A stretch of DNA of 25,134 nt from a virus (lineage: Duplodnaviria > Heunggongvirae > Uroviricota > Caudoviricetes). Position numbers and translations under genes: made by a program. The stretch is from the IMG/VR virus record IMGVR_UViG_2778261505_000007, positions 1-25,134 of that record. One strand, written 5' to 3'. This document shows, one piece after another, positions 4,496-15,786 of the stretch (its first letter is position 1; every line of letters starts with the position of its first letter). A model generated the notes under the pieces. That model worked only from the letters and a program-made list of their open reading frames with translations, was not told the DNA's origin and did no database searches.

Positions 4496-4806
4496 GCCGC
4501 GTCCCTCTGTCCATCAAGCTGATCCGCCAGATCCCAGCGGGCGATAATTGCCATTGCCTCTCGCCGATAGGCATCCATCAGTTCTTCGAACTCAGGGCTG
4601 TCTTTAGCAGCCTCCAGTACTTCCTGACGAACGCCTTTGCCTGTTACAACGTCGAAAGTTGAGGACAGTTGATGAAGTCGGATGCTCTCAATCAGTTCAA
4701 CTTGTCGGTCATATAGCTGTTCTGACAGGCGGTAGTCCTTGTCGAATGCCAGCATGATTTTTTGAAGATTTTTCTGCTGATTAACGTTCATTATCAGCCC
4801 TCCCAT
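4492..4806 (-). CDS. Hypothetical protein (about 99 aa if started at ATG 4791)
   Basis: ORF whose stop overlaps the exonuclease start. No recognisable motif; sits where host-nuclease inhibitors often lie, but that is unassigned. Confidence 0.5.
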   Translation of the reverse strand: MGGLIMNVNQQKNLQKIMLAFDKDYRLSEQLYDRQVELIESIRLHQLSSTFDVVTGKGVRQEVLEAAKDSPEFEELMDAYRREAMAIIARWDLADQLDGQRDAA

Positions 4807-4946
4807 ATCTCGTTATCGTTGGCCACATCGCGAGCTTCTTTGCTGACGAAAGCCCACTTGATGCCTTCCTGTAAGGTGCAGAACTTCCAGCTCATGAATC
4901 CGCATGCAGTAACGCAGTACCAACCGTTGATGATTTTCCACTGCAT
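4784..4946 (-). CDS. Small Cys/Trp-rich hypothetical protein (50 aa), first gene of the leftward early operon
   Basis: Not in the ORF track (under 60 aa). ATG at 4946-4944 with GAGGT Shine-Dalgarno 8 nt upstream, stop at 4786-4784. Translation MQWKIINGWYCVTACGFMSWKFCTLQEGIKWAFVSKEARDVANDNEIWEG. Confidence 0.35.
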
Positions 4947-4965
4947 AACTTGTTACCTCGGTCTG

Positions 4966-4980
4966 TTACCGTTGAGGTAA
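4966..4980. promoter_or_regulatory. Operator-like palindrome OL1 (TTACC-GTTGA-GGTAA)
   Basis: Perfect 5+5 inverted repeat with 5-bp spacer, abutting the putative -10 of the leftward promoter. Confidence 0.6.
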
Positions 4981-5008
4981 TGATTATGCGTATTTGGTTT
5001 GATGTCAA
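4980..5008 (-). promoter_or_regulatory. Putative leftward early promoter (P_L-like)
   Basis: On the minus strand: -35 TTGACA (plus 5003-5008), 17-bp spacer, -10 AATCAT (plus 4980-4985). Flanked by OL1 and OL2. Confidence 0.45.
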
Positions 5009-5027
5009 TAGATATGAGTTAAAAAAA

Positions 5028-5042
5028 TTACCTATTAGGTAA
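5028..5042. promoter_or_regulatory. Operator-like palindrome OL2 (TTACC-TATTA-GGTAA)
   Basis: Perfect inverted repeat 62 bp centre-to-centre from OL1, 20 bp upstream of the -35. Confidence 0.6.
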
Positions 5043-5051
5043 TAGTATAGG

Positions 5052-5078
5052 CAATAAAAAAGCCGCCAGAAGGCGGCT
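5052..5078 (-). terminator. Rho-independent terminator downstream of the repressor gene
   Basis: Hairpin AGCCGCC-AGAA-GGCGGCT followed on the minus strand by TTTTTATT, 22 bp past the repressor stop. Confidence 0.6.
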
Positions 5079-5099
5079 TACTTACTGAAAAATATGATT

Positions 5100-5684
5100 T
5101 TATTGTTTGTTTTTTTCGTTCTGGTTGATGACAAATTCAATGTAACTTTCGATCTTTGCCTTCTCTGTTTCAGGTAACAATGCGTAGCGCGAGCGGTCAT
5201 AGTTGATAGTCGCTGGGTCGTGCGGGTGAATCAGTAATTCATATCCGTGACGCCCAAATGCGGATGCAACATTCTCCAGGGTGGAAATGGAAACGCTGAC
5301 CTCATTGTTTAACAGGCGGCTGATTGTTACCTGGGCGACGCCGGATGCGCGGTGAAGTTTTCCCTGCGTTGAAAGGTCGCGGCTTTCGCTCATCCAGCGT
5401 TCCAGGTTGTGAGCCGCCAGCTGGCCAATGTCGCTTGGGCCGACAGGCTGAAAACCTTCCTGAGAAAGCGAGCGATCGATATCAAGCCAGTTACGGGGTT
5501 TATTGGCGGCAGCTTCAATTTTTCGTGCAACCTGGTCGCCGATAACCTTCTTGCCAAGAGCCCAGCGGTTTACCAGATTTGCCTGAGTTCCAAGTTTTTC
5601 AGCCATCCGCGTCTGAACACCATTGAATTCACGGTCGATCAAGTCGTTGAGATTTTGCCTGCGGACGTCCTGGATACTTTTCAT
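5100..5684 (-). CDS. CI-like prophage repressor, two XRE-type HTH regions, no S24 peptidase domain evident
   Basis: 194-aa ORF flanked by operator clusters and divergent from a cro-like gene. HTH-like segments TRMAEKLGTQANLVNRWALGKKVIG and GVAQVTISRLLNNEVSVSISTLENVASAFG. No GDSM-like serine or Ala-Gly cleavage motif found. Confidence 0.7.
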   Translation of the reverse strand: MKSIQDVRRQNLNDLIDREFNGVQTRMAEKLGTQANLVNRWALGKKVIGDQVARKIEAAANKPRNWLDIDRSLSQEGFQPVGPSDIGQLAAHNLERWMSESRDLSTQGKLHRASGVAQVTISRLLNNEVSVSISTLENVASAFGRHGYELLIHPHDPATINYDRSRYALLPETEKAKIESYIEFVINQNEKNKQ

Positions 5685-5739
5685 TTTCTGGAAAATCGCC
5701 TCATATCTGAATCAGAAGATGATTCAATTTAAAGCAATA

Positions 5740-5754
5740 TTACCCAACAGGTAA
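5740..5754. promoter_or_regulatory. Operator-like palindrome OR-a (TTACC-CAACA-GGTAA)
   Basis: Perfect inverted repeat in the cI-cro intergenic region. Confidence 0.6.
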
Positions 5755-5784
5755 ATGCACCTCATGGGTAACTATCCTTGATTT

Positions 5785-5813
5785 TTGTTACCTTATAGGT
5801 GAATATTTATTAT
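5785..5813 (+). promoter_or_regulatory. Putative rightward promoter for cro (P_R-like)
   Basis: -35 TTGTTA (5785-5790), 17-bp spacer, -10 TATTAT (5808-5813), about 25 bp upstream of the cro ATG. Confidence 0.45.
5788..5802. promoter_or_regulatory. Operator-like palindrome OR-b (TTACC-TTATA-GGTGA, one mismatch)
   Basis: Lies between the putative -35 and -10 of the rightward cro promoter. Confidence 0.5.
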
Positions 5814-5838
5814 CTGAAATAAATATCAGGCAATAGCT

Positions 5839-6069
5839 ATGAGCGATAACGGACATTTCGATTTCAAAAAGCACTGGCTTGCACTTACTCCGGATGAGCG
5901 TGAAGCCTTCGCACAGGAAGCCGGAACGACGAGTCACTATATCCAGACTCACTTAACAGGTAAGCGCAAAATGCCAGGTAAGGTATTGATGGATGGGCTT
6001 TTTAAAGCCTGTAAATCAAGACAATGGCTGCGCTCAAAAGCAGAACTGGCATACTTCTTCTACTCATGA
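5839..6069 (+). CDS. Cro-like small HTH regulator (YdaS/Cro-like)
   Basis: 76-aa ORF divergent from the repressor, followed by a strong terminator. HTH-like segment LTPDEREAFAQEAGTTSHYIQTHLTGKRK. Confidence 0.6.
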   Translation: MSDNGHFDFKKHWLALTPDEREAFAQEAGTTSHYIQTHLTGKRKMPGKVLMDGLFKACKSRQWLRSKAELAYFFYS

Positions 6070-6090
6070 TATCCAGCCACAACCCTCTGT

Positions 6091-6114
6091 AGACCGCCAC
6101 CCGGCGGTCTTTTC
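6091..6114 (+). terminator. Rho-independent terminator after cro (tR1-like)
   Basis: Hairpin AGACCGCC-ACCC-GGCGGTCT followed by TTTT. Confidence 0.6.
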
Positions 6115-6124
6115 ATATCTATTC

Positions 6125-6139
6125 GTACCTCAAAGGTAA
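6125..6139. promoter_or_regulatory. Operator-like palindrome (GTACC-TCAAA-GGTAA, one mismatch)
   Basis: Sits just past the cro terminator and upstream of the small Cys/His ORF. Confidence 0.45.
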
Positions 6140-6219
6140 TAAAAAACCAAATCTGGTTGATCTTTTTTTTGTGTCAGCACAAAATGACCGTAATCCCAAT
6201 ACTAATAACAGGGCTTACC

Positions 6220-6420
6220 ATGGAAATCATTACACGTATTGATGCCGCAAAGCGCGGACTTAAACGCTACTACACCGGAAAAACATGTAAGCACGGACAT
6301 GACAGTGAACGCTGGGTTTACAACGGACACTGTGTTGAGTGCACCATGGAATCAAACCGTCGTATCAGGGCAGAGATTAAGCAGATCATGATTAATTCCT
6401 CCCCACAACACTCAAGCTGA
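6220..6420 (+). CDS. Small Cys/His-rich putative zinc-binding protein (about 66 aa)
   Basis: ORF 6157-6420 in the track; an internal ATG at 6220 (or 6184) is the more likely start. Spacing CKHGH...HCVEC suggests a zinc-binding site. Occupies a cII-like position but no homology is asserted. Confidence 0.4.
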   Translation: MEIITRIDAAKRGLKRYYTGKTCKHGHDSERWVYNGHCVECTMESNRRIRAEIKQIMINSSPQHSS

Positions 6421-6435
6421 TAGCGGAGATTAATC

Positions 6436-7251
6436 ATGAGCAGACATGCAACAGATTGGGCCTGGGAGACAGATCCAGGCAGCTCATCATTAAAGCTCAT
6501 ACTGCTCTCGATGGCTGACAGAGCCGATGAATATAACCTCTGCTACCCCAGCATAGAACGCCTCGTTAAAGACACTTGCCTGAATAAAAAAACCGTACAG
6601 GCCGGGCTTATATCACTCATGAGAATGGGGCTTATTTCAGATACCGGAGAGAGAAAGGGGGCGACGAAAAGAGTGCGGGTTTTCTCTCTTAATATAACCA
6701 AAAAAGGGAACATTAAAGGCAACCTGGAAGGGTGTAATGAACCCGAAAACGGTAATGTTCCCGAAAACGGGAATATACCCAAAAACGGGATGTTGAATGA
6801 TCCCAAAAACGGGATGTTGAATGATCCCAAAAACGGGATCCAGAACCAGTCATATAACCAGTCATATAACCAAGAGAGGGAGAGCAGGACAAAAACCGAG
6901 GATTCTGTGCCTCATGACCCCGGCGCAAACAACGCCGTGATGAATAACTTTGTTCCTCCTGGTGGGCCAGGGCAATTAGGCAAATTTGTCATGCATGAAC
7001 AATGGCAGCCATCAGATGACTTTCTTCGGAAAAGCTCATTGCAGGGGATCTACCTGGACAGTCTGCCAACGGCACAGGAACTTGCAGAGTTCAGAATTTA
7101 CTGGATGGCTGAGGGTAAGGCATACCATCAGGCACAGTGGGAGCAGAAGCTGGCAAGGCGGCTGCAGATTAGCAGACAGAAGCAATCAACATTACCTGAT
7201 AACAACGTTCCGCACTGGAACAGCCCTGAAGCATGGGAGGATTTCTTGTGA
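6436..7251 (+). CDS. Replication initiator (lambda O-like) with origin iterons inside the gene
   Basis: 271-aa ORF immediately upstream of a lambda P homolog. The coding sequence contains five tandem DNA repeats, giving the peptide repeats PENGN/PKNGMLND; this matches the lambdoid arrangement of ori inside O. Confidence 0.75.
   Translation: MSRHATDWAWETDPGSSSLKLILLSMADRADEYNLCYPSIERLVKDTCLNKKTVQAGLISLMRMGLISDTGERKGATKRVRVFSLNITKKGNIKGNLEGCNEPENGNVPENGNIPKNGMLNDPKNGMLNDPKNGIQNQSYNQSYNQERESRTKTEDSVPHDPGANNAVMNNFVPPGGPGQLGKFVMHEQWQPSDDFLRKSSLQGIYLDSLPTAQELAEFRIYWMAEGKAYHQAQWEQKLARRLQISRQKQSTLPDNNVPHWNSPEAWEDFL
6742..6867. repeat. Putative origin of replication: five direct iterons (CCCRAAAACGG core, 18-24 bp units) plus a 2x AACCAGTCATAT repeat
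   Basis: Direct repeats read at 6742, 6760, 6778, 6802 and 6826; the 6778 and 6802 copies are identical 24-mers. Followed by a tandem 12-mer at 6844-6867. Confidence 0.7.
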
Positions 7252-8033
7252 ACAACGTTTTTACCGCGATACAAAACCGTGACGGAGAAGCCCTTTCTCG
7301 CATGTCAGGTTATGAGCATCAGTACACCAACAATGACAACGTGGTGAACATGTCAGCAGAGAGGCTTGTTGATGCCCTTTTCAAACAGCTGAAACAACTG
7401 TTTCCGGCGGCAGTGGTAACCAACCTGAAGACGCCAGAGCAGGAAGTTGCTGCAAAACAGCAGTGGATTGCTGCGTTTGCCGAAGGGGGGATCCGAACCC
7501 GTGAACAGGTTTCTGCTGGTATGCGCCACGCCCGCGCCAGTGAGTCTCCGTTCTGGCCGTCGCCAGGGCAATTCATCAAGTGGTGTAAAGACAGCAAGAT
7601 GGTTCTTGGCGTCACCATTGACGATGTGATGGCGGAGTTTCACCGGTACAGCAAGGAAAAAAGTTTATATCCTGGTGGTCCAGAAAGATTCCCGTGGCGA
7701 CATCCGGTTATGTACTGGGTCGTATGTGATACCCGCCGTGCAATGTATCAGCGCCAGCTTAGCGAGATTGAGGTTGAGAAACACGCGCGCAGGCTGCTCG
7801 ATGATTGGGCGAAAAAGGTGGCTTCCGGACAGCAGATACCCGATCCGGTGATCAGCATACAGGCAAAGCCAGAACCCATGAGTACACCTCCGGACACAGG
7901 GAGAGACGTTTACCATCCACCAGGGCGAAGTTTCGGGTGCATGCCTAACGCCGCCACCCTTGGGGGAATAACACCGGCGCAGTGGCTGATGGAGGAATAC
8001 AGGCGGGGAAAGGCGGCAGGATTTATCAAGTAA
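7233..8033 (+). CDS. Replication protein P-like (DnaB helicase loader)
   Basis: Clear similarity to lambda P in blocks (AGMRHARASESPFWPSPGQFIKWC; YPGGPERFPWRHPVMYWVV). Start may be GTG 7248 overlapping the O stop, with GGGAGG Shine-Dalgarno at 7234-7239. Confidence 0.85.
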   Translation: MGGFLVNNVFTAIQNRDGEALSRMSGYEHQYTNNDNVVNMSAERLVDALFKQLKQLFPAAVVTNLKTPEQEVAAKQQWIAAFAEGGIRTREQVSAGMRHARASESPFWPSPGQFIKWCKDSKMVLGVTIDDVMAEFHRYSKEKSLYPGGPERFPWRHPVMYWVVCDTRRAMYQRQLSEIEVEKHARRLLDDWAKKVASGQQIPDPVISIQAKPEPMSTPPDTGRDVYHPPGRSFGCMPNAATLGGITPAQWLMEEYRRGKAAGFIK

Positions 8034-8038
8034 TACCA

Positions 8039-8058
8039 GCGCGATAGCGCATTTTTTT
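8039..8058 (+). terminator. Weak putative terminator after the P-like gene
   Basis: Short GCGC-GATA-GCGC stem followed by ATTTTTTTA. The stem is only 4 bp. Confidence 0.3.
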
Positions 8059-8070
8059 ACGCTCAAATAA

Positions 8071-8085
8071 TTACCTATCAGGTAA
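8071..8085. promoter_or_regulatory. Operator-like palindrome (TTACC-TATCA-GGTAA)
   Basis: Perfect site 20 bp upstream of a -35-like TTGATT. Confidence 0.55.
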
Positions 8086-8104
8086 TAAAATATTCTAAAC
8101 TCTA

Positions 8105-8133
8105 TTGATTTCGTGTCTTATGTGGTTTTTAAT
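8105..8133 (+). promoter_or_regulatory. Putative promoter for the 8151-12117 operon
   Basis: -35 TTGATT (8105-8110), 17-bp spacer, -10 TTTAAT (8128-8133). Same geometry relative to the two palindromes as at P_L. Confidence 0.45.
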
Positions 8134-8147
8134 TACCTCAGAGGTAA
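8133..8147. promoter_or_regulatory. Operator-like palindrome (TTACC-TCAGA-GGTAA)
   Basis: Perfect site abutting the -10 and overlapping the Shine-Dalgarno of the 8151 gene; 62 bp centre-to-centre from the 8071 site. Confidence 0.55.
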
Positions 8148-8150
8148 ATC

Positions 8151-8498
8151 ATGAGAAAACAGATGCAGGCTCTTGGTCGACTCAAAACAGGCCAGATGAA
8201 CAAAACAGAATCTGCGTATTGCCAGCACCTTGAGCTGCGTAAACGTGCAGGGGAAATCGCCTGGTATCGATTCGAGGGTATCAAGCTGCGGTTAGCTAAT
8301 AACACGTTCTATACGCCCGATTTCGCTGTGATGCTCGCCACCGGCGAGATGGAGCTGCACGAAGTGAAAGGGGGATTCTGGACCGATGACGCCAGAGTGA
8401 AAACCAAAGTCGCCGCAGATCAGTATCCGTTCCGAATCATCGGGGTAACGGTTAAGCCAAAGAAAGCAGGTGGTGGCTGGAACATCGAAGAGTTCTGA
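8151..8498 (+). CDS. DUF1064-like phage protein
   Basis: 115-aa protein with a pattern typical of the DUF1064 family common in lambdoid replication/nin regions (YTPDF...HEVKGG). Family call is from memory, not a search. Confidence 0.55.
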   Translation: MRKQMQALGRLKTGQMNKTESAYCQHLELRKRAGEIAWYRFEGIKLRLANNTFYTPDFAVMLATGEMELHEVKGGFWTDDARVKTKVAADQYPFRIIGVTVKPKKAGGGWNIEEF

Positions 8499-9806: not shown

Positions 9807-10444
9807 CAATTGACTATCAGGTACTGCGTGAGGCGGCAGAAAAGGCAACGTGTGGTGAGTGGTCGCTCGAATATGGAAAGGGCCGATTTGATGGTGATGA
9901 TGCGCTAATTCATCGTGAAGTTGCTGGATATATTCCCATTTGCAGAATTGAAGGAGCGCATCCTGAAAGCGGTTTCGATGAAGATTTCCAAACTGAACAG
10001 CAGGCCAATGCTGAATTCATCGCCGCAGCCAGTCCAGCTACCGTGCTGGCGCTGCTGGACGAGCTGGAGCATTACAAATCACGCGAAGAGCGGGTTACAA
10101 AGCTGGTTATGGATAACTCGACAAGTTGGAATGCTCTCTACAAGAAACTGAAAGACGTAGAGAAGCGCATTGCAGAACTGGAAGCACGGGAAATAAAACC
10201 AGCCAAAGGTGAAGTTCTTGTCGTTGTTTCTGGTTTTACTGGTTGCGGAAAAAGCGCCATTGCCGGGGAAATAGAAATTGCGATGAAAGCTATTGGTGTA
10301 CCGGTACAGTGGACTAATGGCGATGCGGAAAAGCGCATGACAGGAGCTGACTGGCTGACAGCGATTGAGATGTACAAACCAACAGTGCGCATCGTGGAAG
10401 TTAATGTGCCACGCGCCGCTGGCATTCGCATCAAAGGAGAGTGA
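9794..10444 (+). CDS. Ead/Ea22-like protein
   Basis: Contains the segment ANAEFIAAASPATVLALLDELE characteristic of the lambdoid Ead/Ea22-like family, followed by a coiled-coil stretch. Confidence 0.6.
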   Translation: MARMTIDYQVLREAAEKATCGEWSLEYGKGRFDGDDALIHREVAGYIPICRIEGAHPESGFDEDFQTEQQANAEFIAAASPATVLALLDELEHYKSREERVTKLVMDNSTSWNALYKKLKDVEKRIAELEAREIKPAKGEVLVVVSGFTGCGKSAIAGEIEIAMKAIGVPVQWTNGDAEKRMTGADWLTAIEMYKPTVRIVEVNVPRAAGIRIKGE

Positions 10445-10445
10445 T

Positions 10446-10667
10446 ATGGCTAACTCATTACTTAAAACATGCAACAACTGGCAGATTCAGAGGGCGGAGA
10501 TTTTATCTCGCAATCCAGATATGGCAATGACAATTGATAACCTGGATACGCTAATTGAACGGACCGTGCGTTCTGCAATTGATATAGCACATCGAGTGGA
10601 TTGGGATTTCAGAGAAGCGGAGCGACTCGCTAAAGAGCAGGCGAAAGCAGCGGGAAAAGGAGAGTGA
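10446..10667 (+). CDS. Hypothetical protein (73 aa)
   Basis: ATG at 10446 with AGGAGAG Shine-Dalgarno; the ORF-track version starting at 10365 overlaps the previous gene. Confidence 0.45.
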   Translation: MANSLLKTCNNWQIQRAEILSRNPDMAMTIDNLDTLIERTVRSAIDIAHRVDWDFREAERLAKEQAKAAGKGE

Positions 10668-11786: not shown

Positions 11787-12117
11787 ATCAGCATCAGAGC
11801 GCAAAGCCGCTCAGAGAGCCAGACAAGCTGCATCTGGTGTGCGTAAGCTGGAGATTGTGCTTGATGCTCAGGAAATTGAAATGCTGGAGCGTAACTGTGC
11901 CACGCGTCGCCCCGGGCGTGCGCCTTACGAATTTGGGGAGTATATAGCGTTACTGATCCGCCAGGATGATGCACGCGTGCGCGGGCGTATAAAATCGATT
12001 AGCAGAAAACGTTGCGGTAAGTGCGGCGAGAAAGTTCCCGTTAATTCATGCCCGTGTAATGGTGACTCGCAATGCTGGGTGACTAAAGGCTGGCATGAAA
12101 CTAAATTAATAGTGTGA
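11779..12117 (+). CDS. Hypothetical basic protein with putative DNA-binding N-terminus and C-terminal Cys cluster
   Basis: 112-aa ORF; N-terminal basic/helical segment (SERKAAQRARQAASGVRKLEIVLDAQEIEMLER) and C-terminal CGKCGEK...CPCNGDSQC motif. Last gene before the terminator and the terminase genes. Confidence 0.45.
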   Translation: MAKSASERKAAQRARQAASGVRKLEIVLDAQEIEMLERNCATRRPGRAPYEFGEYIALLIRQDDARVRGRIKSISRKRCGKCGEKVPVNSCPCNGDSQCWVTKGWHETKLIV

Positions 12118-12166
12118 CATGTCACGAGTAGATTATGCATGATGAATTTGATGGGTTTTGAATACT

Positions 12167-12193
12167 GCCGCCAACTATGGCGGCTTTATTTTG
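12167..12193 (+). terminator. Rho-independent terminator upstream of the terminase genes
   Basis: Hairpin GCCGCC-AACTAT-GGCGGC followed by TTTATTTTG. Confidence 0.55.
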
Positions 12194-12203
12194 CATGGTA
12201 CTA

Positions 12204-12218
12204 TTACCACAACGGTAA
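12204..12218. promoter_or_regulatory. Operator-like palindrome (TTACC-ACAAC-GGTAA)
   Basis: Perfect site 18 bp upstream of the terminase small subunit ATG. Confidence 0.55.
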
Positions 12219-12221
12219 CAA

Positions 12222-12236
12222 TTACCAGGGTGGTTA
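12222..12236. promoter_or_regulatory. Operator-like palindrome (TTACC-AGGGT-GGTTA, one mismatch)
   Basis: Immediately adjacent second site, overlapping the terminase small subunit Shine-Dalgarno and start. Confidence 0.4.
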
Positions 12237-14301: not shown

Positions 14302-15150
14302 TTACTTTTGTGTTTTTGATTTTCTTTGATGGGTGGAATTTAAACCACCATTTATATTTACTAGAGGATTATTCAATAATGTACTGATTTCTGGATTGTT
14401 AATTCCAGTAACGCCAAGTTTCTTTACGGACTCATTAAGGTCTTGTAATGATTTTAGACCTACAAACCCATTAGCAATTGTATTATTTGTTGCCAAAGGA
14501 ATGTTTTTCTTATAGGACTCATATTCGTTTTTTAAATTTTTGTGGGCTTTTTCTAGATTTTCTAGTTTAGATGTTGTTTCATGAATAACCTTAGATAATT
14601 CTAAAATACGAGCTTGTGCTGCGCGCAGTTCTGTCTCCCTCTCTTTCAATTCAGATGTGAGTTGTCCCATTCTGTCTTTTGAAAGAATTATTTCCTCTTT
14701 CATGTCTTGAATGTTTTTTTCAGCGCCTGTTTTTACTTTTTCGTAAGTAATGTCTTTTTTAGCCAGCAATCTCTGTAGCCGTGTTTCACGTTGTATTTTT
14801 CTTGCCTTCCGGTGATTTTCGATTGAGTCATTATTATCAAGAGGCTTTGCTTGCCATACGTTAATGATATTGTTTACCCATGGTAATAGGCAGCAGATAG
14901 TAATTACAGATAAGCATGGATAAAACATAACAGTTTTCCATGTGCTGTTATCTGAGATGTATGAAATTTTATCTATTATATTTGATTTGCTAAAAAATAG
15001 ATAAAGAAGTGATTTCCAGTTGAAGGCGCACCAGGACATAACAAAAGCACCTAGCACAGGGTTTTTAGCTCGATGCACGGCAGTATTGGCAGTAGATAAA
15101 AACAGCTCTTTGAACGATTCGAACATACTAATTACCTTAAAGTTTTTCAT
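14302..15150 (-). CDS. AT-rich gene: membrane-anchored coiled-coil protein of unknown function (about 282 aa)
   Basis: Opposite strand to all flanking late genes and visibly AT-rich. Two hydrophobic segments (PVLGAFVMSWCAFNWKSLLYLFF; TVMFYPCLSVITICCLLPWVNNIINVW) followed by a long charged heptad-like region. Preferred start ATG 15150 (AAGGT Shine-Dalgarno); the longer track ORF to 15222 would translate through a terminator hairpin. Confidence 0.6.
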   Translation of the reverse strand: MKNFKVISMFESFKELFLSTANTAVHRAKNPVLGAFVMSWCAFNWKSLLYLFFSKSNIIDKISYISDNSTWKTVMFYPCLSVITICCLLPWVNNIINVWQAKPLDNNDSIENHRKARKIQRETRLQRLLAKKDITYEKVKTGAEKNIQDMKEEIILSKDRMGQLTSELKERETELRAAQARILELSKVIHETTSKLENLEKAHKNLKNEYESYKKNIPLATNNTIANGFVGLKSLQDLNESVKKLGVTGINNPEISTLLNNPLVNINGGLNSTHQRKSKTQK

Positions 15151-15154
15151 GATT

Positions 15155-15169
15155 ATACCTTTAAGGTAA
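15155..15169. promoter_or_regulatory. Operator-like palindrome (ATACC-TTTAA-GGTAA, one mismatch)
   Basis: Overlaps the Shine-Dalgarno/promoter region of the AT-rich gene. A TTACC half-site also at 15132-15136. Confidence 0.4.
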
Positions 15170-15372: not shown

Positions 15373-15449
15373 TGGCGCGGCATGCAGGATTCGAACCTGC
15401 GACCAACCGCTTAGAAGGCGGTTGCTCTGTCCAACTGAGCTAATGCCAC
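15373..15449 (-). tRNA. tRNA-Arg (anticodon UCU)
   Basis: Minus-strand 77-nt sequence GTGGCATTAGCTCAGTTGGACAGAGCAACCGCCTTCTAAGCGGTTGGTCGCAGGTTCGAATCCTGCATGCCGCGCCA folds by hand into a cloverleaf: 7-bp acceptor stem, GTTCGAATCC T-arm, anticodon loop CTTCTAA, encoded CCA. Related to but distinct from the host argU sequence as I recall it. Confidence 0.9.
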
Positions 15450-15771: not shown

Positions 15772-15786
15772 TTACCTGAAAGGTAA
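15772..15786. promoter_or_regulatory. Operator-like palindrome (TTACC-TGAAA-GGTAA)
   Basis: Perfect site about 90 bp upstream of the first virion gene. Confidence 0.55.

Follow-up and report, generated by a model that had tools for sequence, protein, structure and literature searches.

The early region and its two operator-flanked cassettes

The window analyzed here is a stretch of 25,134 nucleotides (positions 1 to 25,134 of the IMG/VR virus record IMGVR_UViG_2778261505_000007, Caudoviricetes) that contains two promoter-like cassettes, each bracketed by a pair of palindromes. One cassette precedes the leftward early operon and the other precedes an operon that begins at position 8151 (the 8151 operon), called nin-like in a first-pass annotation of this DNA. 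A 3.6-kb stretch is 97-98% identical to the Escherichia phages PAS61, phiv142-3, and phiV10 (genus Uetakevirus, the epsilon15 group), and 562 of 5,426 complete E. coli genomes contain prophage DNA similar to it. Judged by these similarities the window is a phiV10-like temperate Uetakevirus, and the gene order was read by comparison with phiV10. The early-left operon, on the minus strand, ends at 4946. Its first gene (4794-4946, minus strand), equivalent to p39 of phiV10, encodes a 50-residue protein of phrog_898, to which no function is assigned. To its right are the gene for the repressor, Rep (5100-5684, minus strand, 194 residues), a cro-like gene (5839-6069) followed by a terminator at 6091-6110, a small gene, and then the DnaT-like and P-like replication genes (6436-8033). 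The first gene of the 8151 operon (8151-8498, plus strand) encodes a DUF1064/resolvase-like endonuclease (Pfam DUF1064; phrog_190 "Holliday junction resolvase", E 1.8e-43). Eae- and Ead-like genes follow, the operon ends with a regulator gene at 12117, and the terminase and head genes come after it.

Exact matches to the palindrome TTACC-N5-GGTAA are present at 4966-4980, 5028-5042, 8071-8085, and 8133-8147. Their centers (4973 and 5035; 8078 and 8140) are those given by the first-pass annotation and the members of each pair are, as it stated, exactly 62 bp apart. The whole window has seven exact matches versus 0.00 expected from 100 dinucleotide-preserving shuffles, and 28 matches with up to two mismatches versus 7.0 +/- 3.1 expected. 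The -35-like hexamers TTGACA and TTGATT, each with a 17-bp spacer to a -10 hexamer, were also found where they had been reported. At the leftward early promoter, TTGACA (5003-5008, minus strand) and AATCAT (4980-4985, minus strand) have the hexamers and spacing of a sigma-70 promoter with a score of 10/12 in the promoter scan, and CTATTGAC is kept in 10 dereplicated lineages. The distal operator is that at 5028-5042, and the proximal operator (4966-4980) covers the predicted start site. In the second cassette TTGATT (8105-8110, plus strand), which lies inside a conserved CTATTGA, and the -10-like TTTAAT (8128-8133, plus strand) are found between a distal operator at 8071-8085 and a proximal operator at 8133-8147.

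The geometry is the same in the two cassettes, the TTGATT and TTTAAT hexamers holding the same positions relative to their two sites as the leftward hexamers hold to theirs. In both, the first base of the -35 hexamer is 27 bp past the distal center and 35 bp before the proximal center. In both cases 19 bp, rather than the 20 bp first proposed, separate the 15-bp distal core from the -35 hexamer. The proximal site, said to abut the -10 hexamer, is indeed adjacent but in fact overlaps it by 1 bp, the last base of the -10 being the first base of the proximal 15-mer. In each cassette the 19-bp interval from distal site to -35 is rich in A and T (AAAATATT... and TTTTTTTAA...) and resembles an UP element. 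As 62 bp is about six helical turns, the two operators of a pair should lie on the same face of the DNA with the promoter between them, the placement seen in auxiliary-operator loops (63 bp in some lineages). Note that GAGG (8142-8145), the ribosome-binding sequence for the gene that starts at 8151, is part of the right half of the 8133-8147 operator.

The cassettes were aligned without gaps on their site centers over 103 bp. The operators and CTATTGA are shared and 55 of the 103 positions are identical, but only 29 of the 73 positions outside the operators are, seven of these 29 being in CTATTGA. Identity outside both operators and CTATTGA is thus 22/66 by subtraction, which we judge to be near chance. 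The proposal that a whole promoter-operator cassette had been duplicated therefore holds for the architecture, whereas literal duplication of the sequence was rejected.

Conservation of the cassettes in relatives

Viral contigs were scanned for two exact sites 47-77 bp apart, center to center, and at least 119 loci were obtained. Adjacent exact sites were 62 bp apart in at least 122 pairs and 63 bp apart in at least 19. The other commonest spacings among adjacent pairs up to 120 bp apart were 17 bp (at least 26 pairs, adjacent sites) and 76 bp (at least 10 pairs), where the 76-bp value reflects the third leftward site that epsilon15-type phages have. Both cassettes are found again in over 100 viral contigs, and the distance between the two is roughly constant at 3.0-3.4 kb. 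An exact CTATTGA lies at a constant distance from the proximal site in all but six of 143 cassettes examined, and those 63-bp variants that were inspected have an additional base between the distal site and the -35 hexamer.

Dereplication at 85% interior identity left 10 lineages of each cassette type. The columns conserved over these 10 + 10 lineages are the half-sites, CTATTGA(C), and an A/T-rich hexamer zone beside the proximal site; the 62-bp spacing is kept and the rest has diverged. At the place of the -10 of the 8151-type promoter, relatives have TTAAAT/TAAATT, TATAAA/ATAAAT, or CAGTAT. In 47 near-identical phiV10-type relatives the ten half-site bases of the 8078 site and those of the 8140 site are invariant (47/47), as are positions 8102-8109, whereas the bases between and beside the half-sites, including the center of the 8078 operator, have a per-site diversity of 0.3-0.6. 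Half-sites of the leftward distal operator are also kept in relatives, its center and linker being hypervariable.

That the equal geometry arose by chance or by recent neutral duplication deserves practically no credence. A single genome has just two cassettes and their identity outside functional elements is near chance, as this explanation would have it, but it is refuted by the expectation of zero exact sites and by retention of the geometry in more than 100 contigs and 20 dereplicated lineages. Moreover, epsilon15 and SPC32H have this geometry as well, with a repressor of substantially different sequence.

The gene behind the second cassette differs among lineages, being a DUF1064 gene, a RuvC-like resolvase gene, or another gene having a longer leader and its own ribosome-binding site. 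As both the downstream gene and the leader length vary, the cassette fits a portable promoter module. Within the same slot behind the same cassette, the window has its DUF1064 gene (8151-8498, phrog_190) and epsilon15 has a RuvC-like resolvase gene (9988-10452 of viral contig L003). This swap looks like a non-orthologous replacement that keeps the function, a reading based on DUF1064 also scoring as a resolvase family.

Deletion variants of the second cassette are found in three viral contigs (L085, L124, and L144). A 44-bp interior segment is gone, the operators are 18 bp apart, and the order is terminator, ACTTGCAAATTG, operator, 3 bp, operator, ATG. These variants recreate TTGCAA-17-AATTAT around the operators, with the first operator in the spacer.

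The distal operators lie in hypervariable islands (8062-8080 and 5030-5049) in which the operator centers and the linker of ~9 nt to the terminator are diverse. Diversity is 0.3-0.6 per site in the island of the second cassette and 0.16-0.30, as 10-bp averages, in the leftward island, and is ~0-0.06 in flanking genes, promoter cores, and the operators of the repressor/cro interval. Most relatives have GCCT in both linkers, 5 nt before ATTACC; the window has GCTC in the second linker. The hypervariable patches may represent old diversity that persists as islands between recombination crossover blocks. We considered and rejected gene conversion between the two distal patches: within-genome similarity exceeded that of a naive shuffle, but the excess was gone in the phiV10-type group (3.52 versus 3.45 matches of 10, p = 0.41).

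The palindrome and the Rep repressor

The repressor matches Rep of phage SPC32H over its full length (PDB 5D50 chain A, residues 1-190, E 4e-42) and its C-terminal half matches PDB 5D4Z (residues 89-190, E 4e-20). It also matches Pfam HTH_3, and the segment NLVNRW of the N-terminal domain is identical in the two proteins. By homology it belongs to the Rep family, which has an N-terminal helix-turn-helix domain, a middle dimerization domain, and a C-terminal tetramerization/antirepressor-binding domain; its tetramerization region aligns with that of SPC32H Rep. SPC32H Rep is described in secondary sources (PMC9638917 and PMC9986798) as a tetramer that binds DNA as a tetramer with the DNA-binding pairs drawn from different dimers, as having a p53-like looping tetramerization domain, and as being inactivated by an antirepressor rather than by cleavage. 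The repression mechanism of Rep "has not been extensively characterized" in the wording of PMC9986798. The repressor of phage ZX5 is stated to be identical in sequence to that of phiV10, and its overexpression decreased endolysin and holin transcripts by 99.97-99.99% (PMC9782041); the operator was not mapped in that work.

Three copies of the palindrome are located between the repressor and cro-like genes (5740-5802): an exact match at 5740-5754, one with two mismatches at 5757-5771, and one with a single mismatch at 5788-5802 that sits over the rightward promoter. The same three-site layout (17/30-31 bp) is present in epsilon15 and SPC32H. As this is the classic position of an immunity operator, TTACC-N5-GGTAA is taken from its placement to be the immunity operator of the phage. 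phiV10, epsilon15, and SPC32H have the same half-sites although the repressor sequence of the window and that of SPC32H differ substantially, which fits the identity of NLVNRW in these two proteins. The cro-like protein may share the four operators of the two cassettes.

The first-pass annotation argued that the sites are functional. Retention of the half-sites and CTATTGA amid hypervariable bases, identity of the motif with that of the immunity operator, and the epsilon15 precedent described below all point the same way.

Terminators upstream of several operators

The intrinsic terminator of the repressor gene (5060-5079, minus strand) has eight pairs, six of them G-C, and a T-run (RNA fold -17.5 kcal/mol, z -5.1). 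After replication gene P is a mini-terminator, GCGC-GATA-GCGC-A-T7 (8039-8058, plus strand; RNA fold -8.7 kcal/mol, z -2.8), which is given as a putative terminator in the phiV10 record. Of the 52 distinct upstream flanks seen for cassettes of the second type, almost all have the form GCGC-N4-GCGC-R-T7, irrespective of the upstream gene, and one has TCGC in the first arm. The whole window has five terminator calls with at least six G-C pairs, and an operator begins 14-24 nt after four of them (5079-5060 followed by 5042, 6091-6110 by 6125, 12167-12184 by 12204, and 15209-15194 by 15169). The mini-terminator with its operator at 8071 is a fifth case of this coupling, and no operator follows the remaining strong terminator (15329-15294). 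Measured from the end of the G-C stem to the operator 17-mer, the distance is 18 nt for the leftward cassette, 19 nt for the 8151 cassette, and 18 nt for the terminase site.

This coupling raises the possibility that the distal sites act mainly as roadblocks linked to termination, resembling stoperators: repressor bound ~18 nt past the stem would stall RNA polymerase in the U-tract. Termination would then be tight only in the lysogen, where, for example, the repressor transcript would be kept out of the early-left operon and the weak GCGC hairpin would be made effective, and the 62-bp spacing would be a by-product of a common module layout. Besides the terminator-operator pairs and their near-constant spacing (18, 19, and 18 nt), the repressor gene points the same way as the early-left operon, just a terminator lying between the two. 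As the repressor transcript runs straight into the early-left operon, a roadblock would be most relevant to that transcript. In contrast, neither the constant 27 bp from distal site to -35 nor the constant presence of a proximal site is explained by a roadblock, the terminator at 15329-15294 lacks an operator, and several operators of phiV10 and SPC32H (those of the lysis operon and integrase) have no obvious preceding terminator. We regard this role as possible though doubtful. It could coexist with a repression loop, the two being rivals only as reasons for having a distal site.

Past the cro-like gene, at 6091-6190, is a third module built to the same plan. Its parts are, in order, the strong terminator 6091-6110, a one-mismatch operator (6125-6139), A-rich DNA, TTGATC (6157-6162), a 17-bp spacer, and CAAAAT (6180-6185), and then just a half-site, (G/T)ACC. 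The design was seen in ~50 distinct sequence variants from viral contigs, and the module would drive the small gene and the replication genes. The independence of the 8151 operon from the rightward early promoter was, if anything, understated in the first-pass annotation, in that the terminator at 6091-6110 and the promoter-like module at 6157-6185 separate cro from the replication genes.

Directly upstream of the -35 of the 6157 module is a 10-bp palindrome, CCWWATWTGG (6147-6156; CCAAATCTGG here and CCATATATGG in relatives). The same palindrome is found upstream of a TGTGTATAAT-type -10 in the lysis-operon promoter of phiV10 (~24755 of contig L002) and SPC32H (~24845 of contig L123). It may be the site of another regulator.

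A candidate promoter for the 8151 operon

Our interpretation is that the four palindromes are probably repressor operators that bracket two real and separately repressible promoters. The first-pass claim that the nin-like operon has a repressible promoter of its own gains support from sequence constraint, the upstream terminator, the varied downstream genes, and the epsilon15 precedent. Several observations weigh against this interpretation. The consensus promoter scan of the window gave no call at 8105-8133, because the -10 of the second promoter, TTTAAT (8128-8133), is weak and lacks the critical A at position 2. A start near 8140, as predicted, leaves a leader of only ~10 nt. The stem of the mini-terminator is only 4 bp, and thus read-through from upstream likely contributes. 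The fixed 62 bp could come from promoter geometry alone, the distal site being set by the -35 or by the terminator with no need of a loop. Finally, no heteroimmune relatives, having a different palindrome at the same positions, were found among the viral contigs scanned by means of the conserved mini-terminator; every family member found in that scan has at least one TTACC-N5-GGTAA at that place.

The first of these points would be accommodated if there were no promoter at 8105-8133. The 8078/8140 pair would then only block transcripts of the replication operon and/or loop over a long range with the leftward operators ~3.1 kb off, and 8151 would be expressed by read-through. Agreeing with this are the weak -10 and the missing scanner call, the upstream stem of just 4 bp, the very short leader that results from a start inside a proximal site overlapping the ribosome-binding sequence, and the roughly constant distance between the cassettes in relatives. 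We nevertheless think it unlikely. CTATTGA and the 17-bp spacing are invariant over divergent lineages while their neighbors vary, and relatives have better -10 hexamers (TAAATT, TATAAA/ATAAAT, and CAGTAT). Other variants have longer leaders with their own ribosome-binding sites, and the deletion variant rebuilds a promoter.

Two further candidate elements were rejected. An antisense promoter within the 8078-8140 cassette (AAGACA-16-TAGAAT, 8119-8092), called by the scanner, is variant-specific and not conserved in other lineages, and the number of scanner calls equals the chance expectation. A conserved ATGTGGWTT before the -10 was considered as an element common to the structural-operon promoter, but it is not enriched in the window (three matches versus 2.4 expected) and the offset differs by 10 bp.

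Possible modes of repression

Each cassette can be read as an insulated module in the order intrinsic terminator, linker of ~18 nt, distal operator, 19 A/T-rich bp, -35, 17 bp, -10, and proximal operator over the start. Transcription from TTGACA-17-AATCAT, the leftward early promoter, would start near 4973, and the second, rightward promoter (TTGATT-17-TTTAAT), starting near 8140, would drive the resolvase/nin-like operon. In the lysogen, repressor at the proximal site would stop initiation. The tetramer bound there would probably grip the distal site with its second DNA-binding pair, giving a small loop around the -35 region and cooperative repression, and distal binding may also keep the alpha subunit of RNA polymerase off the UP-like DNA. 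Upon inactivation of the repressor both promoters would fire independently, and the nin-like operon would not need read-through from the rightward early promoter. Looping of each cassette by a single repressor tetramer seems to us a real prospect that falls a little short of an even chance.

A dimer centered near -61/-62 is at the classic position of a class I activator. The distal sites, with centers 61-62 bp upstream of the predicted starts, could accordingly be activator positions from which the repressor or the cro-like protein stimulates transcription by way of the alpha subunit of RNA polymerase, with repression left to the proximal site alone. The third module has a distal site (6125-6139, with the -35 at 6157) and only a half-site at the proximal position, as such a role would allow. 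However, the leftward promoter, with its consensus -35, can do without an activator, activation of lytic promoters by the lysogeny repressor makes no regulatory sense, and the accessible literature holds no suggestion of it. We consider such activation very improbable.

A more general proposal, which we regard as possible but rather unlikely, is that Uetakeviruses replace the lambdoid antitermination cascade by a chain of terminator-operator-promoter-operator modules, in which the tetramer both clamps the promoter in a micro-loop of six turns and stalls incoming polymerase ~18 nt past the stem. If so, weak terminators such as GCGC-N4-GCGC-T7 would hold firmly in the lysogen but leak during lytic growth, and the distal operator plus its linker would mark the crossover points of module exchange, which would leave hypervariable islands.

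Comparison with known systems

The closest known systems are those of epsilon15 (RefSeq NC_004775.2) and SPC32H, which share with the window the genus, the gene order, the motif ATTACC-N5-GGTAAT, and a repressor homologous over its full length. Both have 62-bp pairs at the leftward promoter and before the first post-replication gene, the start codon of which is 11 nt after the proximal center, as at 8151. The epsilon15 record has protein_bind features labeled "repressor" at 32554-32570, 32616-32632, and 35906-35922 that are orthologous to the sites at 4973, 5035, and 8078. In all it marks three leftward sites and, ahead of the resolvase gene, a single distal one. It leaves out the proximal site that pairs with the latter as well as those of the repressor/cro interval, apparently because only perfect 17-mers were marked. 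epsilon15 and SPC32H differ from the window in having a third leftward site 76 bp further on, and the downstream gene is RuvC-like in epsilon15 but DUF1064 here. The interval that carries this third operator (6480-6496 of contig L003), 76 bp beyond the proximal site, is absent from the window, and an extra TTACC (4952-4956) is left beside the proximal site; this arrangement suggests a deletion between operator copies. The epsilon15 genome paper reportedly gives an operator consensus of the form ATTACC...GGTAAT. The phiV10-type records have no operator annotation.

Lambda CI at O_L and O_R is also a helix-turn-helix immunity repressor acting at palindromic operators on divergent early promoters, with a three-site operator between repressor and cro, and same-face cooperation of the kind known for CI is plausible here. 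Hochschild and Ptashne reportedly observed, in 1986, cooperative binding of CI at operators 5-6 helical turns apart. The lambda operators differ in being adjacent (~24 bp center to center) and inside the promoter rather than flanking it. Moreover, CI is inactivated by RecA-assisted cleavage and the Rep family by an antirepressor. The lambda nin region is expressed by N-dependent antitermination from P_R and has no separate repressible promoter. In contrast, the 8151 region has a conserved promoter-operator cassette with a terminator upstream, which would free it from this dependence on read-through; it is like nin in position and content only (resolvase-like and Eae/Ead-like genes).

With the auxiliary-operator loops (lac O1-O3, gal OE-OI, PrgX of pCF10, and Rco of pLS20) the cassettes share operators that flank the promoter in phase and, by homology, a putative tetramer having two DNA-binding units. 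The 62 bp seen here is at the short end of known loops, and the loop proposed here is inferred from sequence. Rco and SPC32H Rep have a p53-like looping tetramerization fold in common (PMC9986798).

Dispersed sites are well known in other phages. The P1 C1 operators and the "stoperators" of mycobacteriophage L5 gp71 are cases in which one repressor has many genome-wide sites before separate transcription units. The sites in the window are similarly dispersed, and those just after terminators recall elongation blocks. The L5 stoperators differ, being asymmetric, orientation-dependent, and within transcription units, whereas the sites described here are symmetric and intergenic.

The arrangement, which is conserved in the genus, is an expected kind of lysogeny control that is already partly annotated in epsilon15. 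Within the accessible literature we found no description of the geometry in its exact shared form, of the proximal site at the second promoter, of the coupling to terminators, or of the link to the tetrameric structure, and these are refinements and not a new kind of system. They provide a concrete and testable scheme of how lysogeny is controlled in a common E. coli prophage family, with the early genes apparently divided among units that are repressed separately and insulated by terminators, not joined in a single antiterminated operon. The cassettes are also a natural substrate for asking how tetrameric Rep, a protein of known structure and poorly characterized repression mode, engages DNA. 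Operator and promoter features can be transferred from epsilon15 to the phiV10-type records and extended there.

Dispersed operators and other loci

Further operator matches in the window are at 12204-12236, just before the start of the terminase small-subunit gene, at 15155-15169, before an accessory gene on the minus strand, and at 15772-15786, upstream of the portal operon. Complete relatives have the motif near antirepressor/tailspike, lysis, and integrase genes (20504, 20884, 24699, and 26877 of phiV10, contig L002; 20020, 24789, and 26967 of SPC32H, contig L123). This distribution suggests direct repression of most transcription units by the repressor.

The terminase small subunit is listed from TTG 12158, as in phiV10. 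An in-frame ATG (12239) lies right after the second operator, and translation from this ATG gives a full Terminase_2 match (E 1e-29). The annotated start at 12158 is probably too far upstream, as it would place the terminator 12167-12184 and two operators inside the gene.

The integrase gene occupies 1-1251 and a tRNA-Arg (tct) is encoded at 15373-15449 on the minus strand. A 282-codon gene of phrog_4780, to which no function is assigned, occupies 14302-15150 (minus strand). Its start lies in the loop of an 11-bp inverted repeat (15132-15142/15159-15169) that contains an operator with one mismatch, and a promoter-like ATGACC-17-TATAAT is found at 15180-15152 with the terminator 15209-15194 just upstream.

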